Below are positions 9,687 to 45,604 of a stretch of 45,604 nucleotides of DNA, piece after piece. Source of the DNA: Escherichia coli (GTDB lineage: Bacteria > Pseudomonadota > Gammaproteobacteria > Enterobacterales > Enterobacteriaceae); NCBI RefSeq assembly GCF_003334335.1, contig NZ_QOWQ01000036.1; one strand, given 5' to 3'. The position numbers and the translations under genes are program-made. The stretch's first letter is position 1; each line of letters begins with the position of its first letter. Below the pieces are notes generated by a model that saw only the letters and a list, made by a program, of their open reading frames with translations, made no database searches and was not told where the DNA came from.

Positions 9687-10300
9687 GACTCCTTGCTCAT
9701 CGCATGAAGACTCCGAGAGTGAACCCCGTTAGAAAGGGTCACACGCATGCCCCAATAGAAATTTGTTTGAACACTTTCATCATACCATGTGAATGCACAC
9801 AAAAACGGCGTAAAGAAAGGTTGCAAACATGTTAATAAAAACTCAAATTGATCCCACGTATATATTACGCCGCAAAATCCTTACAATAAACAGGTTTTTG
9901 TTGAAGCAAATTTGCATTTTTCGACGGTGATCAATTTATAGCTAAATTACCGCCTTTCAGCCAATTTGATCGAGAACAATTTATCTCTTTTTGATGCCCA
10001 TTTCCAAGACTTATACATTGATAAATATCAATTCCTACAAATTATGTTAATCATGTTTCAATAAGGTAACTTTAGTGACATTTATGTTTAAAATGTGTGA
10101 GTTATAAGGCTGAAATTAGTTTCGGTTGGCAATTAAAGATAAAAAGAGACGAAGCAAAAACAGCACGGTTGACCTTAATTCTTTTTTTGGTCACTGGCTA
10201 ATACGACGCAGAGTTTCAGGATTACTAATAAAGGCATAAATCCACCCCGCCAATATTAACATTTAGTTAACTTATAATTATATTATAATTAACTCACCCA
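9687..10300 (-). promoter_or_regulatory. cydA upstream control region (long AT-rich leader/promoter zone)
   Basis: ~600 bp AT-rich non-coding DNA upstream of cydA with TTGAT-containing and TGTTAA-type motifs; cydAB is known to be controlled by ArcA/FNR/H-NS. Individual sites not mapped. Confidence 0.5.
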
Positions 10301-10431
10301 GGGTTATTATTTTGTTAAAAATAAAGCCACATATACGTGGCTTGAGAGTGAAGATAAACGCAAAATTACCTGATGCGCTACGCTTGCCAGTGTCTACATC
10401 ATCTCTGCAATATATTGAATTTGCCTGCTTT

Positions 10432-10467
10432 TGTAGACCGAATAAAGCGTTCATGCCGTATCCGGCA
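10432..10467. repeat. REP-like palindromic element (degenerate)
   Basis: tgtagaccgaataaagcgttcatgccgtatccggca resembles the REP consensus; lies just 3' of mngB. Confidence 0.55.
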
Positions 10468-18210: not shown

Positions 18211-18380
18211 CCGTAGGCCTGATAAGACACGTTAACCGTCACATCAGGCATCGCTTGTCGGATGCGGCGCTAGCGCCTTATCCGACCTACATTGGTGGTC
18301 CCGTAGGCCTGATAAGACGCGTCAGCGTCGCATCAGGCTTCAATTGCCGGAGAAGGCGATAATGCCTTATCCGGTCTACA
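18211..18380. repeat. REP/BIME cluster in the sucB-sucC intergenic region
   Basis: Several inverted copies of the gcctgatgcgacgc / gccttatccggcctac REP motif. Confidence 0.8.
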
Positions 18381-22613: not shown

Positions 22614-22733
22614 CGCCTGATGCGCTGCGCTTATCAGGCCTACGGGTAATGACTTGTAGGCCGGATAAGGCGTTCACGCCGCATCCGGCACTGGTTGCCT
22701 GATGCGACGCTTGCGCGTCTTATCAGGCCTACG
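22614..22733. repeat. REP cluster between sdhB and sucA
   Basis: Three REP-consensus copies in alternating orientation ending 2 nt before the sdhB stop. Confidence 0.8.
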
Positions 22734-25964: not shown

Positions 25965-26672
25965 GAATAACGCCCACATGCTGTTCTTATTATTCCCTGG
26001 GGACTACGGGCACAGAGGTTAACTTTCTGTTACCTGGAGACGTCGGGATTTCCTTCCTCCGGTCTGCTTGCGGGTCAGACAGCGTCCTTTCTATAACTGC
26101 GCGTCATGCAAAACACTGCTTCCAGATGCGAAAACGACACGTTACAACGCTGGGTGGCTCGGGATTGCAGGGTGTTCCGGAGACCTGGCGGCAGTATAGG
26201 CTGTTCACAAAATCATTACAATTAACCTACATATAGTTTGTCGGGTTTTATCCTGAACAGTGATCCAGGTCACGATAACAACATTTATTTAATTTTTAAT
26301 CATCTAATTTGACAATCATTCAACAAAGTTGTTACAAACATTACCAGGAAAAGCATATAATGCGTAAAAGTTATGAAGTCGGTATTTCACCTAAGATTAA
26401 CTTATGTAACAGTGTGGAAGTATTGACCAATTCATTCGGGACAGTTATTAGTGGTAGACAAGTTTAATAATTCGGATTGCTAAGTACTTGATTCGCCATT
26501 TATTCGTCATCAATGGATCCTTTACCTGCAAGCGCCCAGAGCTCTGTACCCAGGTTTTCCCCTCTTTCACAGAGCGGCGAGCCAAATAAAAAACGGGTAA
26601 AGCCAGGTTGATGTGCGAAGGCAAATTTAAGTTCCGGCAGTCTTACGCAATAAGGCGCTAAGGAGACCTTAA
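25965..26672. promoter_or_regulatory. Divergent gltA / sdhCDAB promoter and leader region
   Basis: 708-bp non-coding region between divergently oriented gltA and sdhC; this region is known to carry catabolite/ArcA-regulated promoters and the sRNA-targeted sdhC leader. Individual sites not mapped. Confidence 0.6.
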
Positions 26673-27956
26673 ATGGCTGATACAAAAGCAAAACTCACCC
26701 TCAACGGGGATACAGCTGTTGAACTGGATGTGCTGAAAGGCACGCTGGGTCAAGATGTTATTGATATCCGTACTCTCGGTTCAAAAGGTGTGTTCACCTT
26801 TGACCCAGGCTTCACTTCAACCGCATCCTGCGAATCTAAAATTACTTTTATTGATGGTGATGAAGGTATTTTGCTGCACCGCGGTTTCCCGATCGATCAG
26901 CTGGCGACCGATTCTAACTACCTGGAAGTTTGTTACATCCTGCTGAATGGTGAAAAACCGACTCAGGAACAGTATGACGAATTTAAAACTACGGTGACCC
27001 GTCATACCATGATCCACGAGCAGATTACCCGTCTGTTCCATGCTTTCCGTCGCGACTCGCATCCAATGGCAGTCATGTGTGGTATTACCGGCGCGCTGGC
27101 GGCGTTCTATCACGACTCGCTGGATGTTAACAATCCTCGTCACCGTGAAATTGCCGCGTTCCGCCTGCTGTCGAAAATGCCGACCATGGCCGCGATGTGT
27201 TACAAGTATTCCATTGGTCAGCCATTTGTTTACCCGCGCAACGATCTCTCCTACGCCGGTAACTTCCTGAATATGATGTTCTCCACGCCGTGCGAACCGT
27301 ATGAAGTTAATCCGATTCTGGAACGTGCTATGGACCGTATTCTGATCCTGCACGCTGACCATGAACAGAACGCCTCTACCTCCACCGTGCGTACCGCTGG
27401 CTCTTCGGGTGCGAACCCGTTTGCCTGTATCGCAGCAGGTATTGCTTCACTGTGGGGACCTGCGCACGGCGGTGCTAACGAAGCGGCGCTGAAAATGCTG
27501 GAAGAAATCAGCTCCGTTAAACACATTCCGGAATTTGTTCGTCGTGCGAAAGACAAAAATGATTCTTTCCGCCTGATGGGCTTCGGTCACCGCGTGTACA
27601 AAAATTACGACCCGCGCGCCACCGTAATGCGTGAAACCTGCCATGAAGTGCTGAAAGAGCTGGGCACGAAGGATGACCTGCTGGAAGTGGCTATGGAGCT
27701 GGAAAACATCGCGCTGAACGACCCGTACTTTATCGAGAAGAAACTGTACCCGAACGTCGATTTCTACTCTGGTATCATCCTGAAAGCGATGGGTATTCCG
27801 TCTTCCATGTTCACCGTCATTTTCGCAATGGCACGTACCGTTGGCTGGATCGCCCACTGGAGCGAAATGCACAGTGACGGTATGAAGATTGCCCGTCCGC
27901 GTCAGCTGTATACAGGATATGAAAAACGCGACTTTAAAAGCGATATCAAGCGTTAA
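26673..27956 (+). CDS. gltA: Citrate synthase (type II)
   Basis: 427 aa with the conserved citrate synthase active-site region (GFGHRVYK). Confidence 0.97.
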
Positions 27957-27986
27957 TGGTTGATTGCTAAGTTGTAAATATTTTAA

Positions 27987-28016
27987 CCCGCCGTTCATAT
28001 GGCGGGTTGATTTTTA
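27987..28016 (+). terminator. Intrinsic terminator of gltA
   Basis: cccgcc-gttcatat-ggcggg stem-loop followed by ttgatttttat. Confidence 0.85.
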
Positions 28017-28345
28017 TATGCCTAAACACAAAAAATTGTAAAAATAAAATCCATTAACAGACCTATATAGATATTTAAAAAGAATAGAACAGCTCAAATT
28101 ATCAGCAACCCAATACTTTCAATTAAAAACTTCATGGTAGTCGCATTTATAACCCTATGAAAATGACGTCTATCTATACCCCCCTATATTTTATTCATCA
28201 TACAACAAATTCATGATACCAATACTTTAGTTTTGCATTTAATAAAACTAACAATATTTTTAAGCAAAACTAAAAACTAGCAATAATCAAATACGATATT
28301 CTGGCGTAGCTATACCCCTATTCTATATCCTTAAAGGACTCTGTT

Positions 28346-28912
28346 ATGTTTAAAGGACAAAAAACATTGGCCGCACTGGCCGTATCTCTGCTGTTCACTG
28401 CACCTGTTTATGCTGCTGATGAAGGTTCTGGCGAAATTCACTTTAAGGGGGAGGTTATTGAAGCACCTTGTGAAATTCATCCAGAAGATATTGATAAAAA
28501 CATAGATCTTGGACAAGTCACGACAACCCATATAAACCGGGAGCATCATAGCAATAAAGTGGCCGTCGACATTCGCTTGATCAACTGTGATCTGCCTGCT
28601 TCTGACAACGGTAGCGGAATGCCGGTATCCAAAGTTGGCGTAACCTTCGATAGCACGGCTAAGACAACTGGTGCTACGCCTTTGTTGAGCAACACCAGTG
28701 CAGGCGAAGCAACTGGGGTCGGTGTACGACTGATGGACAAAAATGACGGTAACATCGTATTAGGTTCAGCCGCGCCAGATCTTGACCTGGATGCAAGCTC
28801 ATCAGAACAGACGCTGAACTTTTTCGCCTGGATGGAACAAATTGATAATGCAGTCGATGTCACGGCAGGTGAAGTAACCGCTAACGCAACCTACGTGCTG
28901 GATTATAAATAA
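28346..28912 (+). CDS. ybgD: Fimbrial subunit (chaperone-usher pathway)
   Basis: 188 aa; signal peptide (AAVYA), Cys pair, C-terminal beta-strand typical of pilins. Confidence 0.85.
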   Translation: MFKGQKTLAALAVSLLFTAPVYAADEGSGEIHFKGEVIEAPCEIHPEDIDKNIDLGQVTTTHINREHHSNKVAVDIRLINCDLPASDNGSGMPVSKVGVTFDSTAKTTGATPLLSNTSAGEATGVGVRLMDKNDGNIVLGSAAPDLDLDASSSEQTLNFFAWMEQIDNAVDVTAGEVTANATYVLDYK

Positions 28913-28962
28913 GTATTATTTTGGCGGCATCATCGCCGCCTTTCATAAAATATTTATCAGGT

Positions 28963-31419
28963 ATGGACACCGTGAATATTTATCGACTCTCTTTTGTATC
29001 CTGCCTGGTCATGGCGATGCCTTGCGCAATGGCGGTCGAATTCAATCTGAATGTTCTCGATAAATCAATGCGCGACCGCATTGATATTTCATTATTAAAG
29101 GAAAAAGGAGTCATTGCTCCCGGTGAATATTTTGTTAGCGTTGCGGTGAATAACAACAAAATCAGTAATGGGCAAAAAATTAACTGGCAAAAAAAGGGTG
29201 ACAAAACCATTCCATGCATCAATGATTCACTGGTCGATAAATTTGGTTTAAAACCAGATATCCGTCAGTCCTTGCCACAGATAGATCGGTGTATTGATTT
29301 CAGTTCCCGACCTGAAATGCTCTTCAATTTCGATCAAGCCAATCAGCAACTGAATATTAGTATTCCGCAAGCCTGGCTGGCGTGGCACTCAGAAAACTGG
29401 GCTCCCCCCTCTACATGGAAAGAAGGTGTTGCCGGTGTCCTGATGGATTACAACTTGTTTGCCAGCAGCTACCGCCCACAGGACGGCAGCAGCAGCACTA
29501 ACCTGAATGCCTACGGTACCGCCGGAATTAACGCCGGGGCATGGCGCTTACGCAGTGATTACCAGCTTAATAAGACCGATAGCGAAGATAACCATGACCA
29601 GTCAGGCGGAATATCGCGCACCTATCTTTTTCGTCCATTACCGCAATTAGGCTCTAAGTTAACCCTCGGCGAAACCGATTTCAGTTCCAATATTTTCGAT
29701 GGTTTTTCTTATACCGGCGCGGCACTGGCGAGTGACGATCGAATGTTACCGTGGGAGCTGCGTGGCTACGCCCCACAAATTAGCGGTATTGCACAGACCA
29801 ATGCCACGGTGACGATCAGTCAATCAGGCCGCGTCATTTACCAGAAAAAAGTCCCGCCAGGCCCGTTTATTATTGATGACCTCAATCAGTCTGTTCAGGG
29901 CACGCTGGATGTCAAAGTGACGGAAGAAGATGGTCGGGTGAACAATTTCCAGGTTTCGGCAGCATCGACGCCCTTCCTGACTCGCCAGGGACAGGTTCGC
30001 TATAAATTGGCCGCGGGTCAGCCACGGCCTTCCATGTCACATCAAACTGAAAATGAAACCTTTTTTAGCAATGAAGTTTCCTGGGGGATGCTCTCAAACA
30101 CCTCGCTGTACGGCGGCCTGCTGATTTCTGATGATGACTACCATTCTGCCGCAATGGGTATCGGGCAAAATATGCTGTGGCTTGGCGCACTGTCCTTTGA
30201 TGTCACCTGGGCCAGTAGCCATTTTGATACTCAGCAGGACGAGCGGGGCTTAAGCTACCGTTTTAATTACAGCAAACAAGTGGATGCCACCAACAGCACG
30301 ATTTCGCTCGCCGCTTATCGCTTCTCAGATCGTCATTTTCACAGCTACGCCAACTATCTGGATCACAAATACAACGACAGCGATGCGCAGGACGAAAAAC
30401 AGACGATCAGCTTATCCGTGGGCCAACCGATTACCCCACTAAACCTCAATCTTTACGCCAACCTGCTACATCAAACCTGGTGGAATGCAGACGCCTCCAC
30501 GACCGCCAACATCACAGCAGGTTTTAATGTTGATATTGGTGACTGGAGAGATATCTCGATTTCGACGTCATTCAATACGACCCACTACGAAGATAAAGAT
30601 CGCGACAACCAGATTTATCTGTCGATTTCGCTCCCCTTCGGTAACGGTGGTCGGGTTGGCTATGACATGCAAAACAGTAGCCACAGCACCATACACCGCA
30701 TGTCGTGGAACGATACGCTGGATGAACGTAATAGCTGGGGCATGTCTGCCGGACTGCAATCCGATCGTCCGGACAATGGAGCCCAGGTGAGCGGTAACTA
30801 TCAGCACCTGAGTTCAGCGGGTGAGTGGGATATTTCTGGTACCTATGCCGCCAGTGATTACAGTTCCGTCAGCAGCAGCTGGAGCGGTTCTTTCACCGCA
30901 ACCCAATATGGTGCAGCATTTCATCGCCGCAGCTCCACCAATGAACCACGCCTGATGGTCAGCACCGATGGCGTGGCAGATATTCCGGTTCAGGGCAATC
31001 TCGACTACACCAACCATTTTGGCATTGCGGTGGTGCCGTTGATTTCCAGTTACCAGCCTTCCACCGTGGCGGTGAACATGAATGACTTACCCGACGGCGT
31101 AACAGTTGCAGAAAACGTCATCAAGGAAACATGGATTGAAGGCGCGATAGGTTACAAATCACTGGCTTCCCGTTCCGGTAAAGACGTTAACGTCATCATA
31201 CGCAACGCCAGCGGTCAGTTCCCTCCCCTCGGTGCGGATATCCGCCAGGATGACAGCGGCATTAGCGTGGGTATGGTTGGCGAGGAAGGACATGCCTGGT
31301 TAAGCGGTGTCGCTGAAAATCAACTGTTTACCGTGGTCTGGGGTGAGCAAAGCTGCATTATTCATCTGCCAGAACGTCTGGAAGACACGACCAAACGCCT
31401 GATTTTACCTTGTCATTAA
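28963..31419 (+). CDS. ybgQ: Outer-membrane fimbrial usher (FimD/PapC family)
   Basis: Large ORF with signal peptide ending CAMA; start at ATG 28963 or GTG 28972 uncertain. Confidence 0.88.
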   Translation: MDTVNIYRLSFVSCLVMAMPCAMAVEFNLNVLDKSMRDRIDISLLKEKGVIAPGEYFVSVAVNNNKISNGQKINWQKKGDKTIPCINDSLVDKFGLKPDIRQSLPQIDRCIDFSSRPEMLFNFDQANQQLNISIPQAWLAWHSENWAPPSTWKEGVAGVLMDYNLFASSYRPQDGSSSTNLNAYGTAGINAGAWRLRSDYQLNKTDSEDNHDQSGGISRTYLFRPLPQLGSKLTLGETDFSSNIFDGFSYTGAALASDDRMLPWELRGYAPQISGIAQTNATVTISQSGRVIYQKKVPPGPFIIDDLNQSVQGTLDVKVTEEDGRVNNFQVSAASTPFLTRQGQVRYKLAAGQPRPSMSHQTENETFFSNEVSWGMLSNTSLYGGLLISDDDYHSAAMGIGQNMLWLGALSFDVTWASSHFDTQQDERGLSYRFNYSKQVDATNSTISLAAYRFSDRHFHSYANYLDHKYNDSDAQDEKQTISLSVGQPITPLNLNLYANLLHQTWWNADASTTANITAGFNVDIGDWRDISISTSFNTTHYEDKDRDNQIYLSISLPFGNGGRVGYDMQNSSHSTIHRMSWNDTLDERNSWGMSAGLQSDRPDNGAQVSGNYQHLSSAGEWDISGTYAASDYSSVSSSWSGSFTATQYGAAFHRRSSTNEPRLMVSTDGVADIPVQGNLDYTNHFGIAVVPLISSYQPSTVAVNMNDLPDGVTVAENVIKETWIEGAIGYKSLASRSGKDVNVIIRNASGQFPPLGADIRQDDSGISVGMVGEEGHAWLSGVAENQLFTVVWGEQSCIIHLPERLEDTTKRLILPCH

Positions 31420-31433
31420 TTAAGGAAAAGAGA

Positions 31434-32162
31434 ATGACATTTATTAAAGGATTACCCTTAATGTTGTTAACCATCAGCTTGGGTTGCAATGCTGCGGTGC
31501 AACCCGATCGCACACGCATTGTGTTTAACGCCAATGACAAAGCCACCAGCCTGCGTATCGAAAACCAAAGTGACAAACTGCCTTATCTTGCTTATTCCTG
31601 GATAGAAAATGAAAAAGGGGAGAAAAGCGATGCTCTTCTGGTCGCTTTGCCCCCTATTCAACGTCTGGAACCGAAAGCGACATCGCAGGTGCGGGTTGTG
31701 AAACAAGCCTCAACCACACAATTACCTGGCGATCGCGAAACGCTATTTTTCTACAATATGCGCGAAATTCCTCCCGCTCCGGATAAAAGCAGCGACCATG
31801 CGATACTTCAGGTCGCTATTCAAAGTCGTATTAAATTGTTCTGGCGACCGGCTGCATTACGCAAGAAAGCAGGAGAAAAGGTCGAACTGCAGTTACAGGT
31901 CAGCCAGCAGGGCAACCAACTGACACTGAAAAATCCTACCGCGTATTATCTGACCATTGCCTATCTGGGGAGAAATGAAAAAGGCGTTCTCCCAGGCTTC
32001 AAAACCGTGATGGTTGCACCTTTTAGTACGGTCAACACAAACACCGGAAGTTATAGCGGCAGCCAGTTTTATCTCGGTTACATGGATGATTACGGCGCAT
32101 TACGCATGACGACGCTCAACTGCAGCGGACAATGCCGTTTACAAGCAGTGGAGGCGAAATGA
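31434..32162 (+). CDS. ybgP: Periplasmic fimbrial chaperone (PapD-like)
   Basis: Start placed at MTFIKGLPL (242 aa); two-domain immunoglobulin-like chaperone signature. Confidence 0.88.
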
Positions 32163-33220
32163 GTGCTGGCAAGGGATTGTTGCTCGTCATCTGCCTGTTA
32201 TTTCTGCCGTTGAAGTCTGCAATGGCGCTGAACTGCTATTTTGGTACATCTGGTGGCGCAGTAGAAAAATCAGAAGCGATTCAACCGTTTGCTGTACCAG
32301 GCAATGCCAAACCCGGTGATAAGATCTGGGAATCTGACGATATTAAAATTCCCGTCTATTGTGACAACAATACCAACGGCAACTTTGAAAGCGAGCATGT
32401 CTACGCCTGGGTAAACCCCTATCCGGGGGTGCAGGATCGTTATTATCAACTCGGCGTGACATACAACGGTGTCGATTACGATGCCAGTCTGGGAAAAAGT
32501 CGCATCGACACTAACCAGTGTATCGACAGTAAGAACATTGATATTTATACCCCTGAGCAGATCATCGCGATGGGATGGCAGAACAAAATTTGCTCGGGCG
32601 ATCCCGCTAATATTCATATGTCGCGTACCTTTCTCGCTCGCATGCGGTTATACGTCAAAATACGAGAAATGCCGCCGCATGATTATCAAAGTACGCTTAG
32701 CGACTATATCGTCGTGCAATTTGACGGTGCCGGTAGCGTTAACGAAGACCCTACTGCCCAAAACCTGAAATATCATATTACTGGTCTGGAAAACATTCGC
32801 GTGCTGGATTGCAGCGTCAATTTTTCCATTTCACCGGAAACACAGGTGATTGATTTTGGTAAATTTAATTTGCTGGATATACGTCGCCACACAATGTCGA
32901 AAACGTTCAGTATTAAAACGACCAAGAGCCAAAACGATCAATGCACCGACGGATTTAAAGTCAGTTCCTCCTTTTATACCGAAGAAACGTTGGTTGAAGA
33001 AGATAAAGCATTGTTGATTGGTAATGGTCTGAAGCTACGTTTACTGGATGAAAACGCCTCGCCTTATACCTTCAATAAATATGCTGAATACGCCGATTTC
33101 ACCAGTGACATGTTGGTCTACGAAAAAACCTATACGGCTGAACTTTCGTCCATTCCAGGCACCCCCATCGAGGCTGGCCCCTTCGATACAGTGGTGCTTT
33201 TTAAGATTAACTATAACTGA
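32159..33220 (+). CDS. ybgO: Large fimbrial subunit / putative tip adhesin
   Basis: Start at MSAGKGLLL (353 aa), ATGA overlap with ybgP stop; size suggests a two-domain adhesin. Confidence 0.8.
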
Positions 33221-33228
33221 TTTACCAT

Positions 33229-33262
33229 GATGCCCTTTGCCGCCGGAAAGGGCATCTCTTTC
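33229..33262 (+). terminator. Putative intrinsic terminator after the fimbrial operon
   Basis: gatgcccttt-gccgccgg-aaagggcatc hairpin followed by a short T-containing tract. Confidence 0.5.
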
Positions 33263-33371
33263 AGAAAATTGCTGATTTTCCCCTTTTCCTTGATTGCTGT
33301 TATTTTTTCCTGGCCCAGCTTTCTTTATGCTGTATCGATACACCAAAGAGAAAATAATGAGGGAGCGAAGG

Positions 33372-34418
33372 ATGCCAGTTTTGCAGTGGGGAATGTTATG
33401 TGTGCTATCACTTCTCCTTTCTATTGGTTTCCTCGCGGTACATCTCCCGGCGGCGCTATTACTTGGGCCGATGATCGCCGGGATCATCTTTAGTATGCGC
33501 GGAATTACTCTGCAACTTCCCCGCTCTGCTTTTCTCGCCGCCCAGGCCATTCTTGGCTGCATGATTGCGCAAAACCTCACTGGTTCGATTCTCACCACCC
33601 TGGCCGTCAACTGGCCGATCGTGCTTGCAATTTTACTGGTAACGCTGCTTTCCAGCGCCATTGTGGGTTGGTTATTGGTGCGCTATAGCTCATTGCCTGG
33701 AAATACCGGTGCCTGGGGCTCCTCTCCTGGCGGCGCGGCGGCAATGGTCGCTATGGCGCAAGATTACGGCGCAGATATTCGCCTGGTGGCGTTTATGCAA
33801 TATCTGCGAGTGCTGTTCGTCGCGGGGGCCGCTGTTCTGGTCACCCGCATGATGCTGGGCGATAACGCTGAAGCGGTTAACCAGCATATCGTCTGGTTCC
33901 CGCCAGTGAGCATTAATCTCCTGCTTACTATTTTGCTCGCGGTCGTTGCCGGTACAGTGGGATGCCTGCTGCGTCTTCCTTCCGGCACGATGCTCATCCC
34001 GATGCTGGCGGGCGCAGTGCTCCAGTCTGGTCAGCTCATCACCATCGAACTACCGGAATGGCTGCTGGCGATGGCGTATATGGCAATTGGCTGGCGGATT
34101 GGTCTTGGTTTCGATAAACAAATCTTACTGCGGGCACTACGCCCGCTACCGCAAATCCTGCTGTCGATTTTTGCTCTGCTGGCTATTTGTGCGGGTATGG
34201 CGTGGGGGCTGACCCGGTTTATGCACATTGATTTTATGACTGCCTACCTCGCCACCAGCCCCGGCGGGCTTGATACCGTGGCGGTCATCGCCGCAGGGAG
34301 CAATGCCGATATGGCGCTCATTATGGCGATGCAAACCCTACGCCTGTTCAGTATTTTGCTGACAGGGCCTGCCATTGCGCGGTTTATTTCAACCTATGCG
34401 CCGAAGCGGTCGGCCTAG
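33372..34418 (+). CDS. abrB: AbrB-family membrane protein (putative regulator/transporter)
   Basis: ORF track gives 374 aa; start placed at MPVLQWGML (348 aa); polytopic membrane protein. Confidence 0.85.
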
Positions 34419-40080: not shown

Positions 40081-40190
40081 TGCCTGATGCGACGCTTGAC
40101 GCGTCTTATCAGGCCTACGTATTTCCTGCAATTTATTGAATTTGCACAAATTTGTAGGCTGGATAAGGCGTTCACGCCGCATCCGGCATC
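40081..40190. repeat. REP pair between dtpD and phr
   Basis: Two inverted REP-consensus copies (gcctgatgcgacgc... / ...gccgcatccggc). Confidence 0.8.
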
Positions 40191-42287: not shown

Positions 42288-43049
42288 CTATTCAAACGTG
42301 AAATCAATAAGTTCATCAGGGACATCGCAAACAATATGAAGACGGATTTCTTCTCTGCCGTGACTCTTTTCACTCATTGCGTAACTGTCATGCTCTGGAT
42401 TATTTAATTCTTTCAGCGGAAATTTTTCCTCAAAGGCTTTATTTAGCCGCCCCTGGTTTCCTTTTACCGCGAATAAATAATCACCTCCCTGTTTTTGTAT
42501 CTTCTCTGCAATATCTTTCTGGCAACCCATCGCATCAGTTGTGATGATTTTTCCTTTAATATCCAGCATGTTAAGAAGTTCAGGGATAGCTGTGATCTCA
42601 TTGGATTTCTTATCCGTCTTGATCTGCCCGATGACCAGACTGTGCATTGTTGAGAACGCACTAATGACATGAATCGCTCCCCTGCGGCGACTCTTGTCAT
42701 AAGAGTGCCGGAGCGTTTTTCCATCAATTGCAATGACGTCTTTATCATTTGATGAATGGCAATCACGCATCCAGTTAATAAAGCACTCGTGAAATTTTGC
42801 AGGACTGATACAGGATACAACTCTGGCAATAGTATCGTGAACAGGAATACCATTTTCAAAATCACCATATTGCTTCAAGAAATCGAGATGTGTTTCCCCG
42901 AAATCCTCTATATCTTCCCAACTTTCTGCACCAGAAATAACGGCAAAAATAGTCAATAGTAGGATGCCTGACAATTTATGCTCTACTTTCCAGGCTTATC
43001 TGTAATCGGGAATAATAGAAATATGTTCCATCAATTTTTTAAGTTCCAT
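42288..43049 (-). pseudogene. ybfD: H-repeat-associated transposase remnant, copy 1 (ybfD-like), in-frame TAA at codon 18 and 3'-truncated
   Basis: [17 protein letters not shown]-stop(42996-42998)[10 protein letters not shown]... then 228 codons; ends ...[12 protein letters not shown] where full-length ORF-H continues W-K-G-L. Confidence 0.75.
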
Positions 43050-43174
43050 TTGTTCACCTTATTTATGTAAGGAGTATTTGATCATGTATAAGCTATGAAA
43101 AACAGCTTTAGGTAATAAGGAATATCTCAATTTTTAAACATAAAATGCGAATTATTTAGTACAAAAAAGTAGCG

Positions 43175-43429
43175 TTACGTGATCTTTCCCTGGGATACAA
43201 CTCTGGCAATGGTATCGTGAACAGGAATACCATTTTCAAAATCACCATATTGCTTCAAAAAATCGAGATGTGTTTCCCCGAAATCCTCTATATCTTCCCA
43301 ACCTTCTGCACCAGAAATAACGGCACAAATAGTCAACAGTAGAATATCTGACAATTTATGCACCACTTTCCAGGCTTGTCTGTAATCGGGTGTAATAGAA
43401 ATATGTTCCATCAATTTTTTAAGTTCCAT
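43175..43429 (-). pseudogene. H-repeat transposase N-terminal fragment, copy 2 (84 codons)
   Basis: [22 protein letters not shown]...IARVVS then out-of-family QGKIT-stop created by the repeat junction. Confidence 0.8.
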
Positions 43430-43554
43430 TTGTTCACCTTATTTATGTAAGGAGTATTTGATCATGTATAAGCTATGAAAAACAGCTTTAGGTAATAAGG
43501 AATATCTCAATTTTTAAACATAAAATGCGAATTATTTAGTACAAAAAAGTAGCG

Positions 43555-43809
43555 TTACGTGATCTTTCCCTGGGATACAACTCTGGCAATGGTATCGTGA
43601 ACAGGAATACCATTTTCAAAATCACCATATTGCTTCAAAAAATCGAGATGTGTTTCCCCAAAATCCTCTATATCTTCCCAACCTTCTGCACCAGAAATAA
43701 CGGCACAAATAGTCAACAGTAGAATATCCGATAATTTATGTTCCACTTTCCAGGTTTGTCTGTAATCGGGGATAATAGAAATATGTTCCATCAATTTTTT
43801 AAGTTCCAT
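43555..43809 (-). pseudogene. H-repeat transposase N-terminal fragment, copy 3 (84 codons)
   Basis: Near-identical to copy 2 (I13, T19, E23 variants); same junction-derived C-terminus. Confidence 0.8.
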
Positions 43810-43951
43810 TTTGTTCTCCTTAATTAGGTAAGGAGTATTTGATCATGTATAAGCAATAAAAAACAGCTTCAGGTAATAAGGAATATCTCAATTTTTAAAC
43901 ATAAAATGCGAATTATTTAGTGCAAAAAGTGAACTTTTGATGATCTTTCCC

Positions 43952-44315
43952 TGGCCGTTGACTCGATTGCCGTAGCTCGAACGCAAGCACTCTTATCATT
44001 CAATGCCATATTGTTCAAAATATTAAAAACATTATCTTCGCATTTTTTGCAAATTTATATTTGCCCGAGTATAAATGCTCCGATATCTCTACGGATATAA
44101 TTTTTGTCAGTGCAGAATTCAATTGCCAATCTAACAGCGTCTTGCCCCCCTCTTAACTGTAATACTCTGGCAGATGAAATCCTTTTCAAGGAATTGCGAT
44201 CATCAAGTAAGCGAAATAATTCATCATCATTTAGTTTCTTACATTTATTATATAAACCATACTCTTTACTTGCCTTTCTTTTCTGGTATGTATTTGACAT
44301 TGCAGGAACCTCCAT
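43952..44315 (-). pseudogene. yibA-like HEAT-repeat (PBS-lyase type) gene remnant
   Basis: MSNTYQKRKASKEYGLYN...AFILGQI then TAA (44055-44057); homology continues in frame (ICKKCEDNVFNILNNMALNDKSACVRATAIESTA) to ~43953 where the H-rpt terminus begins. Confidence 0.7.
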
Positions 44316-44509
44316 AAAGGCTATCTTTTTCTATCGTTTGACTGTCTGGAGTCCTCCACCTACTCTGCCATCAGCGCACACGATGTTTGATTATCCTTAC
44401 ATACTTATTTTCCGTGGCCAAAATTCAGAATTCTCCCATCATTTTTGCCTATTTCTATAATAAAAACCCCACCAGCAATTTGGTCTGAGTGAATGGTACC
44501 TTCAACAAC

Positions 44510-44752
44510 TCAACTTGTTGTTAACTCAGTGATTTCGTATGGTTTTTCTTCTTCTGCGGCATCCTGTCCATAACGATTCTTAACATATATCTCAGCTAAT
44601 TCCAATGCTATAGCTTTATTTTTAACCAAATTTCTAACGGTATATTTACCTTCACTTTCATACTTGCGCATTATTTTAATATTATTATTACACTGCGCCC
44701 ATGTGTTGTATGTAAAAACAAACAAAGATACAATGACACAGTTCCTAAACAA
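44510..44752 (-). CDS. Small secreted protein, candidate Rhs immunity protein
   Basis: 80-aa ORF 6 nt downstream of the Rhs tip stop; N-terminal signal-peptide-like segment (MFRNCVIVSLFVFTYNTWA); AT-rich like the tip. Confidence 0.5.
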   Translation of the reverse strand: MFRNCVIVSLFVFTYNTWAQCNNNIKIMRKYESEGKYTVRNLVKNKAIALELAEIYVKNRYGQDAAEEEKPYEITELTTS

Positions 44753-44758
44753 TATTTT

Positions 44759-45604
44759 TTACATATTACCATGAACTCTGCAGACATTAGGTAATCCTTT
44801 TCTGTTTGTTATTTCCTTCCCGTGGTTATCTATTGCTTTAAAATTACCACTGGGCGTACCTAAATAAAATGACTTGATATTGTTATCTTTACTTTTAACT
44901 ATTTTCTCATCTTTACCTGAAAATATTTCGTCCCAATATTCTCCATGACTATCTGCACCATGAGTATGATAAGCTGATACTTTCTCAGTACCATTAGGGC
45001 AAGGGCTATTGAATGGATATGATCCTTTTCTTTCTCCTCGGTTAGGTGCTGTTGAGAAATATCTGCCACTATTATCCTTACATATTAAACCAGCGAACTC
45101 TTTATCTTCGCAAATAGATTGGCTATTTATTTTATTTAAGGCGCCATATGCGGTGCTATCTATAGAATCAAATTTATCTGGACCTATCATAGCGGATAGT
45201 GTGCCGCAAAGACCATTAGTACATGCCCCCGATTTTGCATCCTCCCACATAGATAAACCCAGGGGGTCGATGTCTGATATCGGATTCAATTGATATCCAT
45301 ACAGGTTCCATCCCCCCTTCAGTCCAATCGGATCCTGAGTGATATATCGCCCCTGCAGCGGGTCATAATAGCGGTGGCGGTTGTAATACAGGCCGGACTC
45401 CTCATCATACTGCTGCCCCGGCAGCCGGATAAGCTGCTGCAGCTGATGCGGGTTCTCTTCATTCAGCAGGTTGCCCCATTCATCATATTCTGCGCACCAC
45501 GCTGTTGCCCCTTCCGTGCTGATGAGCGCCAGCGGCAGGCCGCGATGGTCGCAGTGGTACAGGTGGATTTTTCGCGCCGGCGTGTACACCGGGTCCATCT
45601 GGTT
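44759..45604 (-). CDS. Rhs protein C-terminal part: end of conserved core plus ~164-aa variable tip (putative toxin); 5' end outside window
   Basis: Core-end signature ...[39 protein letters not shown]; abrupt GC-rich to AT-rich switch at ~45254; Cys/His-rich tip; reading frame runs to the window edge. Confidence 0.85.

Follow-up and report, generated by a model that had tools for sequence, protein, structure and literature searches.

The ybgDQPO locus of Escherichia coli, a pi-class chaperone-usher fimbrial operon with a candidate two-domain tip adhesin

Results

Identity and layout of the operon

A stretch of Escherichia coli DNA of 45,604 nucleotides (contig NZ_QOWQ01000036.1 of assembly GCF_003334335.1; hereafter the window) contains a fimbrial gene cluster at positions 28020-33262. 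This region is very probably the known E. coli K-12 operon ybgDQPO, which encodes a normally silent fimbria of the pi (P-pilus-like) class with a minimal set of four genes. The DNA from 27900 to 33300 was 100% identical to that of many K-12-type E. coli genomes, and the RefSeq annotation of the matched locus gave the gene series gltA, ybgD, ybgQ, ybgP and ybgO, with abrB and nei next. The present analysis established what the genes are, the domain architecture of their products, the clade affinity, the AT-richness, the conservation of the hairpins and the action of purifying selection; H-NS occupancy, the pi typing and the dependence of YbgQ assembly on the translocation and assembly module (TAM) were taken from the literature. 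The four genes are as follows.

28346-28912, + strand: ybgD, 188 amino acids (aa); predicted major pilin and first gene of the operon
28963-31419, + strand: ybgQ, 818 aa from the RefSeq ATG; outer-membrane usher
31434-32162, + strand: ybgP, 242 aa; periplasmic PapD-like chaperone
32159-33220, + strand: ybgO, 353 aa; two-domain tip-adhesin candidate

The four genes share the + strand and are tightly spaced, with 50 nucleotides (nt) between ybgD and ybgQ, 14 nt between ybgQ and ybgP, and a 4-nt overlap between the ybgP stop and the ybgO start; the layout therefore fits one transcription unit. A chaperone-usher fimbrial operon had been proposed here from the letters of the DNA alone, and the Pfam domains of all four proteins bore this out. 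The other sequence-level statements of that original prediction (the genes, their order, the size of the last one and an AT-rich upstream region) also hold.

YbgD carries a Pfam Fimbrial domain at residues 31-188 (E-value 1e-31), and its signal peptide is predicted to end between VYA and ADEG. The usher, YbgQ, is covered by PapC_N at 26-165 (E-value 2e-34), Usher at 183-733 (6e-189) and PapC_C at 746-801 (3e-11). An alternative ybgQ reading frame begins with a TTG at 28921; the annotated ATG, with its CAGG, is the same in all alleles compared. YbgP contains both PapD_N and PapD_C, and its alignment with PapD retains the motifs DRTR and IKLF(W/Y)RP, which we take to hold PapD Arg8 and Lys112. 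Pulse-chase experiments place YbgQ among the TAM-dependent proteins (PMC11014939).

Gene order and clade

The order of the genes had originally been described as unusual, with the statement that most chaperone-usher operons place the chaperone before the usher. To the extent that it concerned K-12, the latter statement stood: when the annotation of all 12 chaperone-usher loci of MG1655 was inspected, eight were chaperone-first, three were usher-first and one could not be determined.

Chaperone before usher (non-pi): fim, sfm, elf/ycb, yad, yeh, yra, yhc, ecp
Pilin, usher, chaperone, then the rest (pi): ybg, yfc, ygiL-yqiGHI
Order undeterminable (truncated): yde

The description of the ybg order as unusual did not stand, the order being regular for the pi clade. 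Of the K-12 operons, precisely the usher-first ones are typed as pi in the literature, ybg among them (PMC5216030; PMC3032704). Pairwise comparisons agreed with this typing: YbgQ matched PapC over its full length (PapC residues 1-805) with 522 bits and FimD with 267 bits, about half the similarity, and YbgP matched PapD with 177 bits and FimC with 106 bits. On these similarity scores YbgQ is placed among the PapC-type (pi) ushers in the scheme of Nuccio and Baumler. Both the clade typing and the statements on H-NS made below rest on secondary papers together with our own pairwise comparisons.

The well-known pap operon has the order papA-H-C-D, in which papC encodes the usher and papD the chaperone. 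Because all three K-12 pi operons are usher-first, the non-pi operons are chaperone-first and papC precedes papD, the usher-first order is a clade trait; i.e., the series subunit, usher, chaperone, adhesin is a marker of the pi clade and not an anomaly. The original description had implied instead that the order points to an assembly system that is rearranged or has an unusual mechanism, and the chaperone does come first in 8 of the 11 K-12 operons whose order can be determined. That reading is nevertheless extremely unlikely, given the exact coincidence of usher-first order with pi typing, the same arrangement in pap itself, and the full length and ordinary PapC- and PapD-like character of YbgQ and YbgP.

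Comparison with related systems

The closest known system is Yqi, or extraintestinal pathogenic E. coli adhesin I (ygiL-yqiG-yqiH-yqiI), which has the same four-gene order and a last protein of about 354 aa. Full-length identities were 38% for YbgD/YgiL, 42% for YbgP/YqiH and 34% for YbgO/YqiI, and by this protein-by-protein comparison ybg is a gene-for-gene paralogue of ygiL-yqiGHI. Both operons carry a GC-rich hairpin after the pilin gene, and the N-terminal domains of both adhesins occur in one series of Protein Data Bank (PDB) entries. They differ in that Yqi lies at another chromosomal locus; in K-12, moreover, IS2 disrupts yqiG but ybgQ is intact. A glycan profile and a part in colonizing the avian lung have been published for Yqi but not for Ybg (PMC8545135). 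The ybgDQPO operon is already catalogued, and within the pi class it is ordinary, with Yqi as its paralogue.

Among better-characterized fimbriae, P pili supply the closest solved usher and chaperone (PapC and PapD), share the usher-before-chaperone order and have an adhesin, PapG, with an N-terminal receptor-binding domain and a C-terminal pilin domain, as in ybg. Type 1 fimbriae (fimAICDFGH) share the assembly pathway and a two-domain tip adhesin, FimH being among the best structural matches of YbgO, but they belong to the gamma-1 clade, place the chaperone before the usher and are controlled by the invertible fimS element with FimB/FimE. The best NCBIfam models were Salmonella StdB (PRK15255), followed by the generically named usher models PRK15284 and PRK15273, for YbgQ, and SteC, StfD and StdC for YbgP. 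All of these matches were below the model cut-offs, and since the scores fell far below the curated values (e.g., 642 against 1289 bits), ybg is not an orthologue of Std, Stf or Ste.

The YbgO adhesin

The original prediction had suggested that YbgO is large enough to be a two-domain tip adhesin. The following architecture was obtained.

aa 1-23, + strand: signal peptide
aa 24-217 (nt 32228-32809), + strand: predicted receptor-binding domain
aa 218-353 (nt 32810-33217), + strand: pilin domain, Pfam Fimbrial

The only Pfam Fimbrial match in YbgO was at 218-353, and a search of NCBIfam with the protein returned no family. The structure was predicted with AlphaFold2 from an alignment of 35 sequences of Enterobacteriaceae homologues. 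The whole protein was modeled with a mean predicted local distance difference test score (pLDDT) of 88.9 and a predicted TM-score (pTM) of 0.78, and the N-terminal part alone with a pLDDT of 91.9 and a pTM of 0.85. Ten-residue means of pLDDT were 81-96 from residue 21 onward, and values below 50 were confined to the signal peptide. When the whole model was used as a Foldseek query, the best matches were the two-domain chaperone-usher adhesins FimH, LpfD, CupB6, PapG, CsuE and CfaE (E-values 1e-8 to 1e-5), with TM-scores that were low because the orientations of the domains differ. The N-terminal domain of the model has the beta-sandwich fold of fimbrial receptor-binding domains.

Solved structures of this domain were also located. 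PDB entries 9RX0 and 9RWW are structures of a YbgO allele that carries five substitutions, and cover residues 24-217 (and 24-222); these constructs begin at the predicted mature N-terminus and stop at the Pfam domain boundary. Entries 9RWU and 9RWV are N-domains of a YbgO homologue of about 40% identity, and the sequence of 9RWE closely matches the YqiI N-domain. A literature search found no papers citing these five entries. The Pfam assignment, the AlphaFold2 model, the Foldseek matches and the separate crystallization of residues 24-217 all support YbgO as a two-domain protein of the tip-adhesin type, and a simple single-domain pilin, against which the structure prediction had been proposed as a check, was not found.

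YbgO would be a tip adhesin, probably with a glycan receptor. It had been stated that receptor specificity cannot be read from the sequence, and this is agreed; Ybg is absent from the fimbriae screened on glycan arrays in a published study (PMC8545135). The N-domain may instead not be a lectin at all and bind a protein or an abiotic or plant surface in place of a host glycan. Its closest fold matches include LpfD, MrkD, Abp1D and CupB6, entries that name no sugar ligand, the PDB molecule names of the N-domain entries likewise name none, and related cryptic fimbriae of K-12 are reported to promote adhesion to abiotic surfaces (2025 review). Against this, the paralogue Yqi binds terminal beta-N-acetylglucosamine and fucosylated glycans on whole-cell glycan arrays (PMC8545135), and the 34% full-length identity between YbgO and YqiI includes an invariant W-E/Q-S motif and the cysteines. 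A non-lectin function is consequently regarded as possible but doubtful.

The AT-rich control region

The region upstream of ybgD contains the following features.

27983-28010, + strand: gltA intrinsic terminator (12-bp stem, then a T run), which bounds the ybg control region on its upstream side
28016-28345, no strand: ybg control region, AT-rich (28% GC) and reported in the literature as a 'promoter island' bound by H-NS
28023-28050, + strand: candidate sigma-70 promoter TAAACA-16-TAAAAT; 9 of 12 matches in a consensus scan, about 295 nt upstream of the ybgD ATG
28226-28274, no strand: 11-nt perfect inverted repeat TTTAGTTTTGC / GCAAAACTAAA from a repeat search, 27 nt between the arms

Position 28020, where the region was originally taken to begin, is just 3' of the gltA terminator hairpin. 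From there to 28345 (326 bp) the GC content is 28.2%, compared with 50.5% for the whole window. Only 0.19% of 326-bp windows are as GC-poor, and the minimum over the whole window (26.7%) lies at 28010. The original description of the roughly 330 bp upstream of ybgD as strongly AT-rich was therefore accurate, the lowest-GC stretch of that length in the window being found here, and the low GC content is far beyond chance for this sequence.

The region had further been proposed as a target of nucleoid-protein silencing. Support for this came from published data: for MG1655, 78 'promoter islands' have been listed, among them the ybgD/gltA spacer (751980, 413 bp), which was occupied by H-NS in all of the chromatin immunoprecipitation (ChIP-chip) datasets compared (Panyukov & Ozoline 2013, PMC3661553), and genomic SELEX (systematic evolution of ligands by exponential enrichment) assigned to ybgD an RpoD promoter, TAAACA-16-TAAAAT, with an H-NS flag (Shimada et al., PMC3946193). 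The SELEX-assigned motif was located at 28023-28050. As a listed member, the spacer does not differ from the promoter islands of K-12, which include the fimbrial spacers yadN/folK, folD/sfmA, ssuE/elfA and agaI/yraH (PMC3661553), and the chaperone-usher operons of commensal E. coli have been described as cryptic and H-NS-repressed (PMC3559732).

It could be argued that the AT-richness is a mere footprint of foreign origin or mutational bias with no regulatory part. The spacer is poorly conserved (53-67% identity between alleles), and promoter-like sites over 27900-33500 were not enriched (9, against 8.2 in shuffled sequences). However, the low GC content (29-33%) was kept in every allele examined despite the divergence in sequence, and both the H-NS occupancy in all of the ChIP-chip studies compared (PMC3661553) and the promoter assigned by RNA polymerase SELEX (PMC3946193) fall in this spacer. 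A footprint devoid of regulatory function is accordingly improbable, and silencing by H-NS is preferred.

Two established types of fimbrial switch were considered and rejected. A Pap-type Dam/Lrp phase switch was discarded because 27852-28504 contains no GATC and no small regulator reading frame like papI or papB was present. A fim-type invertible switch was discarded because the inverted repeats are short or imperfect, none flanks the whole promoter region, and the neighbors are gltA and abrB, with no recombinase. The gltA-ybgD spacer contained no credible regulator-sized open reading frame, and an Rfam scan of the whole window gave no match inside 27900-33400. The inverted repeat at 28226-28274 may be an operator or a chance occurrence in AT-rich DNA.

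Hairpins within and after the operon

Two stable stem-loops were found in the operon.

28923-28940, + strand: GC-rich hairpin between ybgD and ybgQ, GGCGGC-6 nt-GCCGCC then TTT, 11 nt after the ybgD stop
33229-33256, + strand: hairpin after ybgO, 9 nt past the stop; folding free energy -19.5 kcal/mol, z-score -3.2; likely operon terminator with a weak T tract

The hairpin after ybgD is unusually stable (folding free energy -16 kcal/mol, z-score -4.0). In the four alleles compared its stem was invariant and its loop differed, and GC-rich hairpins occupy the equivalent place after ygiL and yfcV in the paralogous pi operons of K-12. By analogy with other fimbrial operons, it may be an attenuator that limits read-through, or an element that stabilizes the mRNA, in either case setting the ratio of pilin to usher. 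The fimA-fimI spacer of MG1655 is annotated as the small RNA (sRNA) FimR2, and was folded for comparison; its stability was not unusual (z-score 0.09), so the analogy of the post-ybgD hairpin with FimR2 is positional only.

The hairpin at 33229-33256 lies within the originally proposed end of the region, 33262. It was missed by the terminator scan because its T run is short. That scan gave 11 sites, compared with 6.3 +/- 2.9 expected, and single sites are weak. A terminator-like stem-loop with a T-rich tail was also seen at 29064-29085, about 100 nt into ybgQ, and may be due to chance.

Diverged alleles

When K-12 was compared with BL21, nucleotide identity varied along the locus.

gltA: 99%
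spacer: 66%
ybgD: 75%
ybgQ: 96.6%
ybgP: 88%
ybgO: 95%

The operon combines deeply diverged alleles in a mosaic, and its surroundings are otherwise conserved. Across 5426 complete genomes, the spacer together with ybgD (28016-28912) matched at 99% or better in 926 genomes; a further 5 fell in the range 95-99% and 3264 in the range 60-80%, with no genome between 80% and 95%. Identity of flanking gltA between alleles is 97-99%. Synonymous divergence was 1.3-1.7 for ybgD and 0.05-0.11 for gltA. Seven translated YbgD alleles fell into three protein classes (K-12, BL21-like and O157) that are mutually 72-79% identical. The N-terminal (donor-strand) extension and the last strand are invariant across the classes, including the segment ADEGSGEIHFKGEVIEAPC and the C-terminal TANATYVLDY, and the differences lie between them. 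The spacer retained a GC content of 29-33% in all alleles examined; in three alleles other than that of the window it was 31-33%, at a sequence identity of only 53-67%.

Discrete, diverged alleles are a general feature of major pilins under diversifying selection. A description of this pattern for ybg was not found in the literature. The pattern itself is measured, and its selective cause is inferred. In a tentative joint proposal, which we think could be correct but would not assume, the spacer and ybgD would be kept in E. coli as a few ancient discrete alleles, without intermediates and exchanged by recombination, amounting to antigenic replacement at the level of the population, with the YbgO receptor-binding domain the most conserved part; the post-ybgD hairpin would act beyond stoichiometry, e.g., as a FimR2-like small RNA; and the YbgO/YqiI N-domain would represent a distinct family of receptor-binding domains.

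Selection and integrity of the locus

To assess selection, K-12 alleles were compared with those of BL21, a blood isolate and O157:H7. The ratio of nonsynonymous to synonymous substitution rates (dN/dS) was 0.04-0.13 for all four ybg genes; the lowest values, 0.01-0.05, were those of the YbgO N-domain. Between these alleles dS reached about 2. The neighboring abrB gave 0.03-0.07, and the ybg genes are no more relaxed. Such low ratios indicate strong purifying selection, which argues against a decaying relic.

Independent damage to the locus was nonetheless seen in other strains. The ybgQ gene is frameshifted in strain 0H24; in strain ET151 an IS5-like element adjoins ybgD and replaces the gltA side; ISVsa5 and IS1 insertions interrupt the locus of other strains, and the operon is largely missing in some genomes. 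Many strains have been reported to be without an intact ybg copy (Wurpel et al.).

Several points weigh against the interpretation of ybgDQPO as a functional, conditionally silent fimbrial system. Many E. coli lack the locus or carry a damaged copy: at least 80% of it is present in only 4154 of the 5426 complete genomes, and insertion sequences and a frameshifted ybgQ occur. The ybgD promoter is a candidate, given by a consensus match with a SELEX assignment, and the production of a Ybg fiber, the site of YbgO at its tip and the binding of a sugar are predictions. Secondary sources also conflict on the phenotype: PMC6033998, citing Korea 2010, states that Ybg increases adherence to bladder cells, whereas the fimbriae that a 2025 review counts as functional are yad, ycb, yfc, yra, sfm and yeh, without ybg.

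An alternative is that ybg is an evolutionary relic in K-12 that is intact on paper, never expressed, without current function and heading for decay. The insertions, the frameshift in 0H24 and the loss of most of the operon from some genomes are in keeping with such a relic, as are the description of commensal chaperone-usher operons as cryptic and H-NS-repressed (PMC3559732) and the statement in PMC8174762 that deletion of ybg is harmless and even improves laboratory growth. However, the four reading frames are intact, dN/dS is 0.04-0.13 with synonymous sites near saturation and shows constraint no weaker than in abrB, the assembly-critical parts of YbgD are invariant across allele classes, and so is the stem of the intercistronic hairpin. 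Expression of the operon was also higher in the group of Shiga toxin-producing E. coli associated with hemolytic uremic syndrome than in the group without this association (PMC6033998). A relic is therefore judged unlikely, and a maintained but normally silent operon is preferred.

Proposed assembly and expression

The order of assembly, the location of YbgO at the tip, the roles of the hairpins and the glycan receptor are inferred. From what is known of the family, all four Ybg proteins would be exported by the Sec system. YbgP would use donor-strand complementation to cap the incomplete immunoglobulin folds of YbgD and of the pilin domain of YbgO, and the YbgP-YbgO complex would open the YbgQ usher. 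YbgD subunits would then be added by donor-strand exchange via the N-terminal extension, giving a YbgD fiber with a single YbgO at its tip. YbgO could occupy only the distal end because its receptor-binding domain stands where a pilin has its donor strand.

Transcription would start in the 330-bp AT-rich spacer, which is presumably coated and silenced by H-NS under laboratory conditions. The hairpin after ybgD would probably yield more pilin than usher message, and the hairpin after ybgO would end the operon.

Other features of the window

Several features outside the operon were recorded. Rfam matches were four tRNAs with RtT elements (1-587, - strand), the cpoB/ybgF thermometer (1514-1652, - strand) and, at 18216-18287, 22659-22729 and 40111-40153, two naRNA4 copies and the ES036 sRNA. 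Other troughs of low GC content occur at about 9707-10461, 26157-26601 and 42739-45204 (minima 29-32% GC); these presumably mark the region upstream of cydA, the control region between the divergent sdhC and gltA, and an AT-rich block close to the end of the window. RefSeq annotates a hypothetical protein of 35 aa (WP_001305582.1) at 26360-26467, in the divergent sdhC-gltA spacer, and it is conserved in the other strains compared.

Discussion

The present check removes the flag of unusual gene order from ybg and otherwise adds little to what is known of this operon. It does provide handles for the locus, namely the YbgO domain boundary (217/218) together with solved structures of the N-domain, the conserved hairpin downstream of the pilin gene, and the discrete promoter/pilin alleles. 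The receptor of YbgO and the condition that induces the operon bear on the choice of niche by commensal and diarrhoeagenic E. coli.

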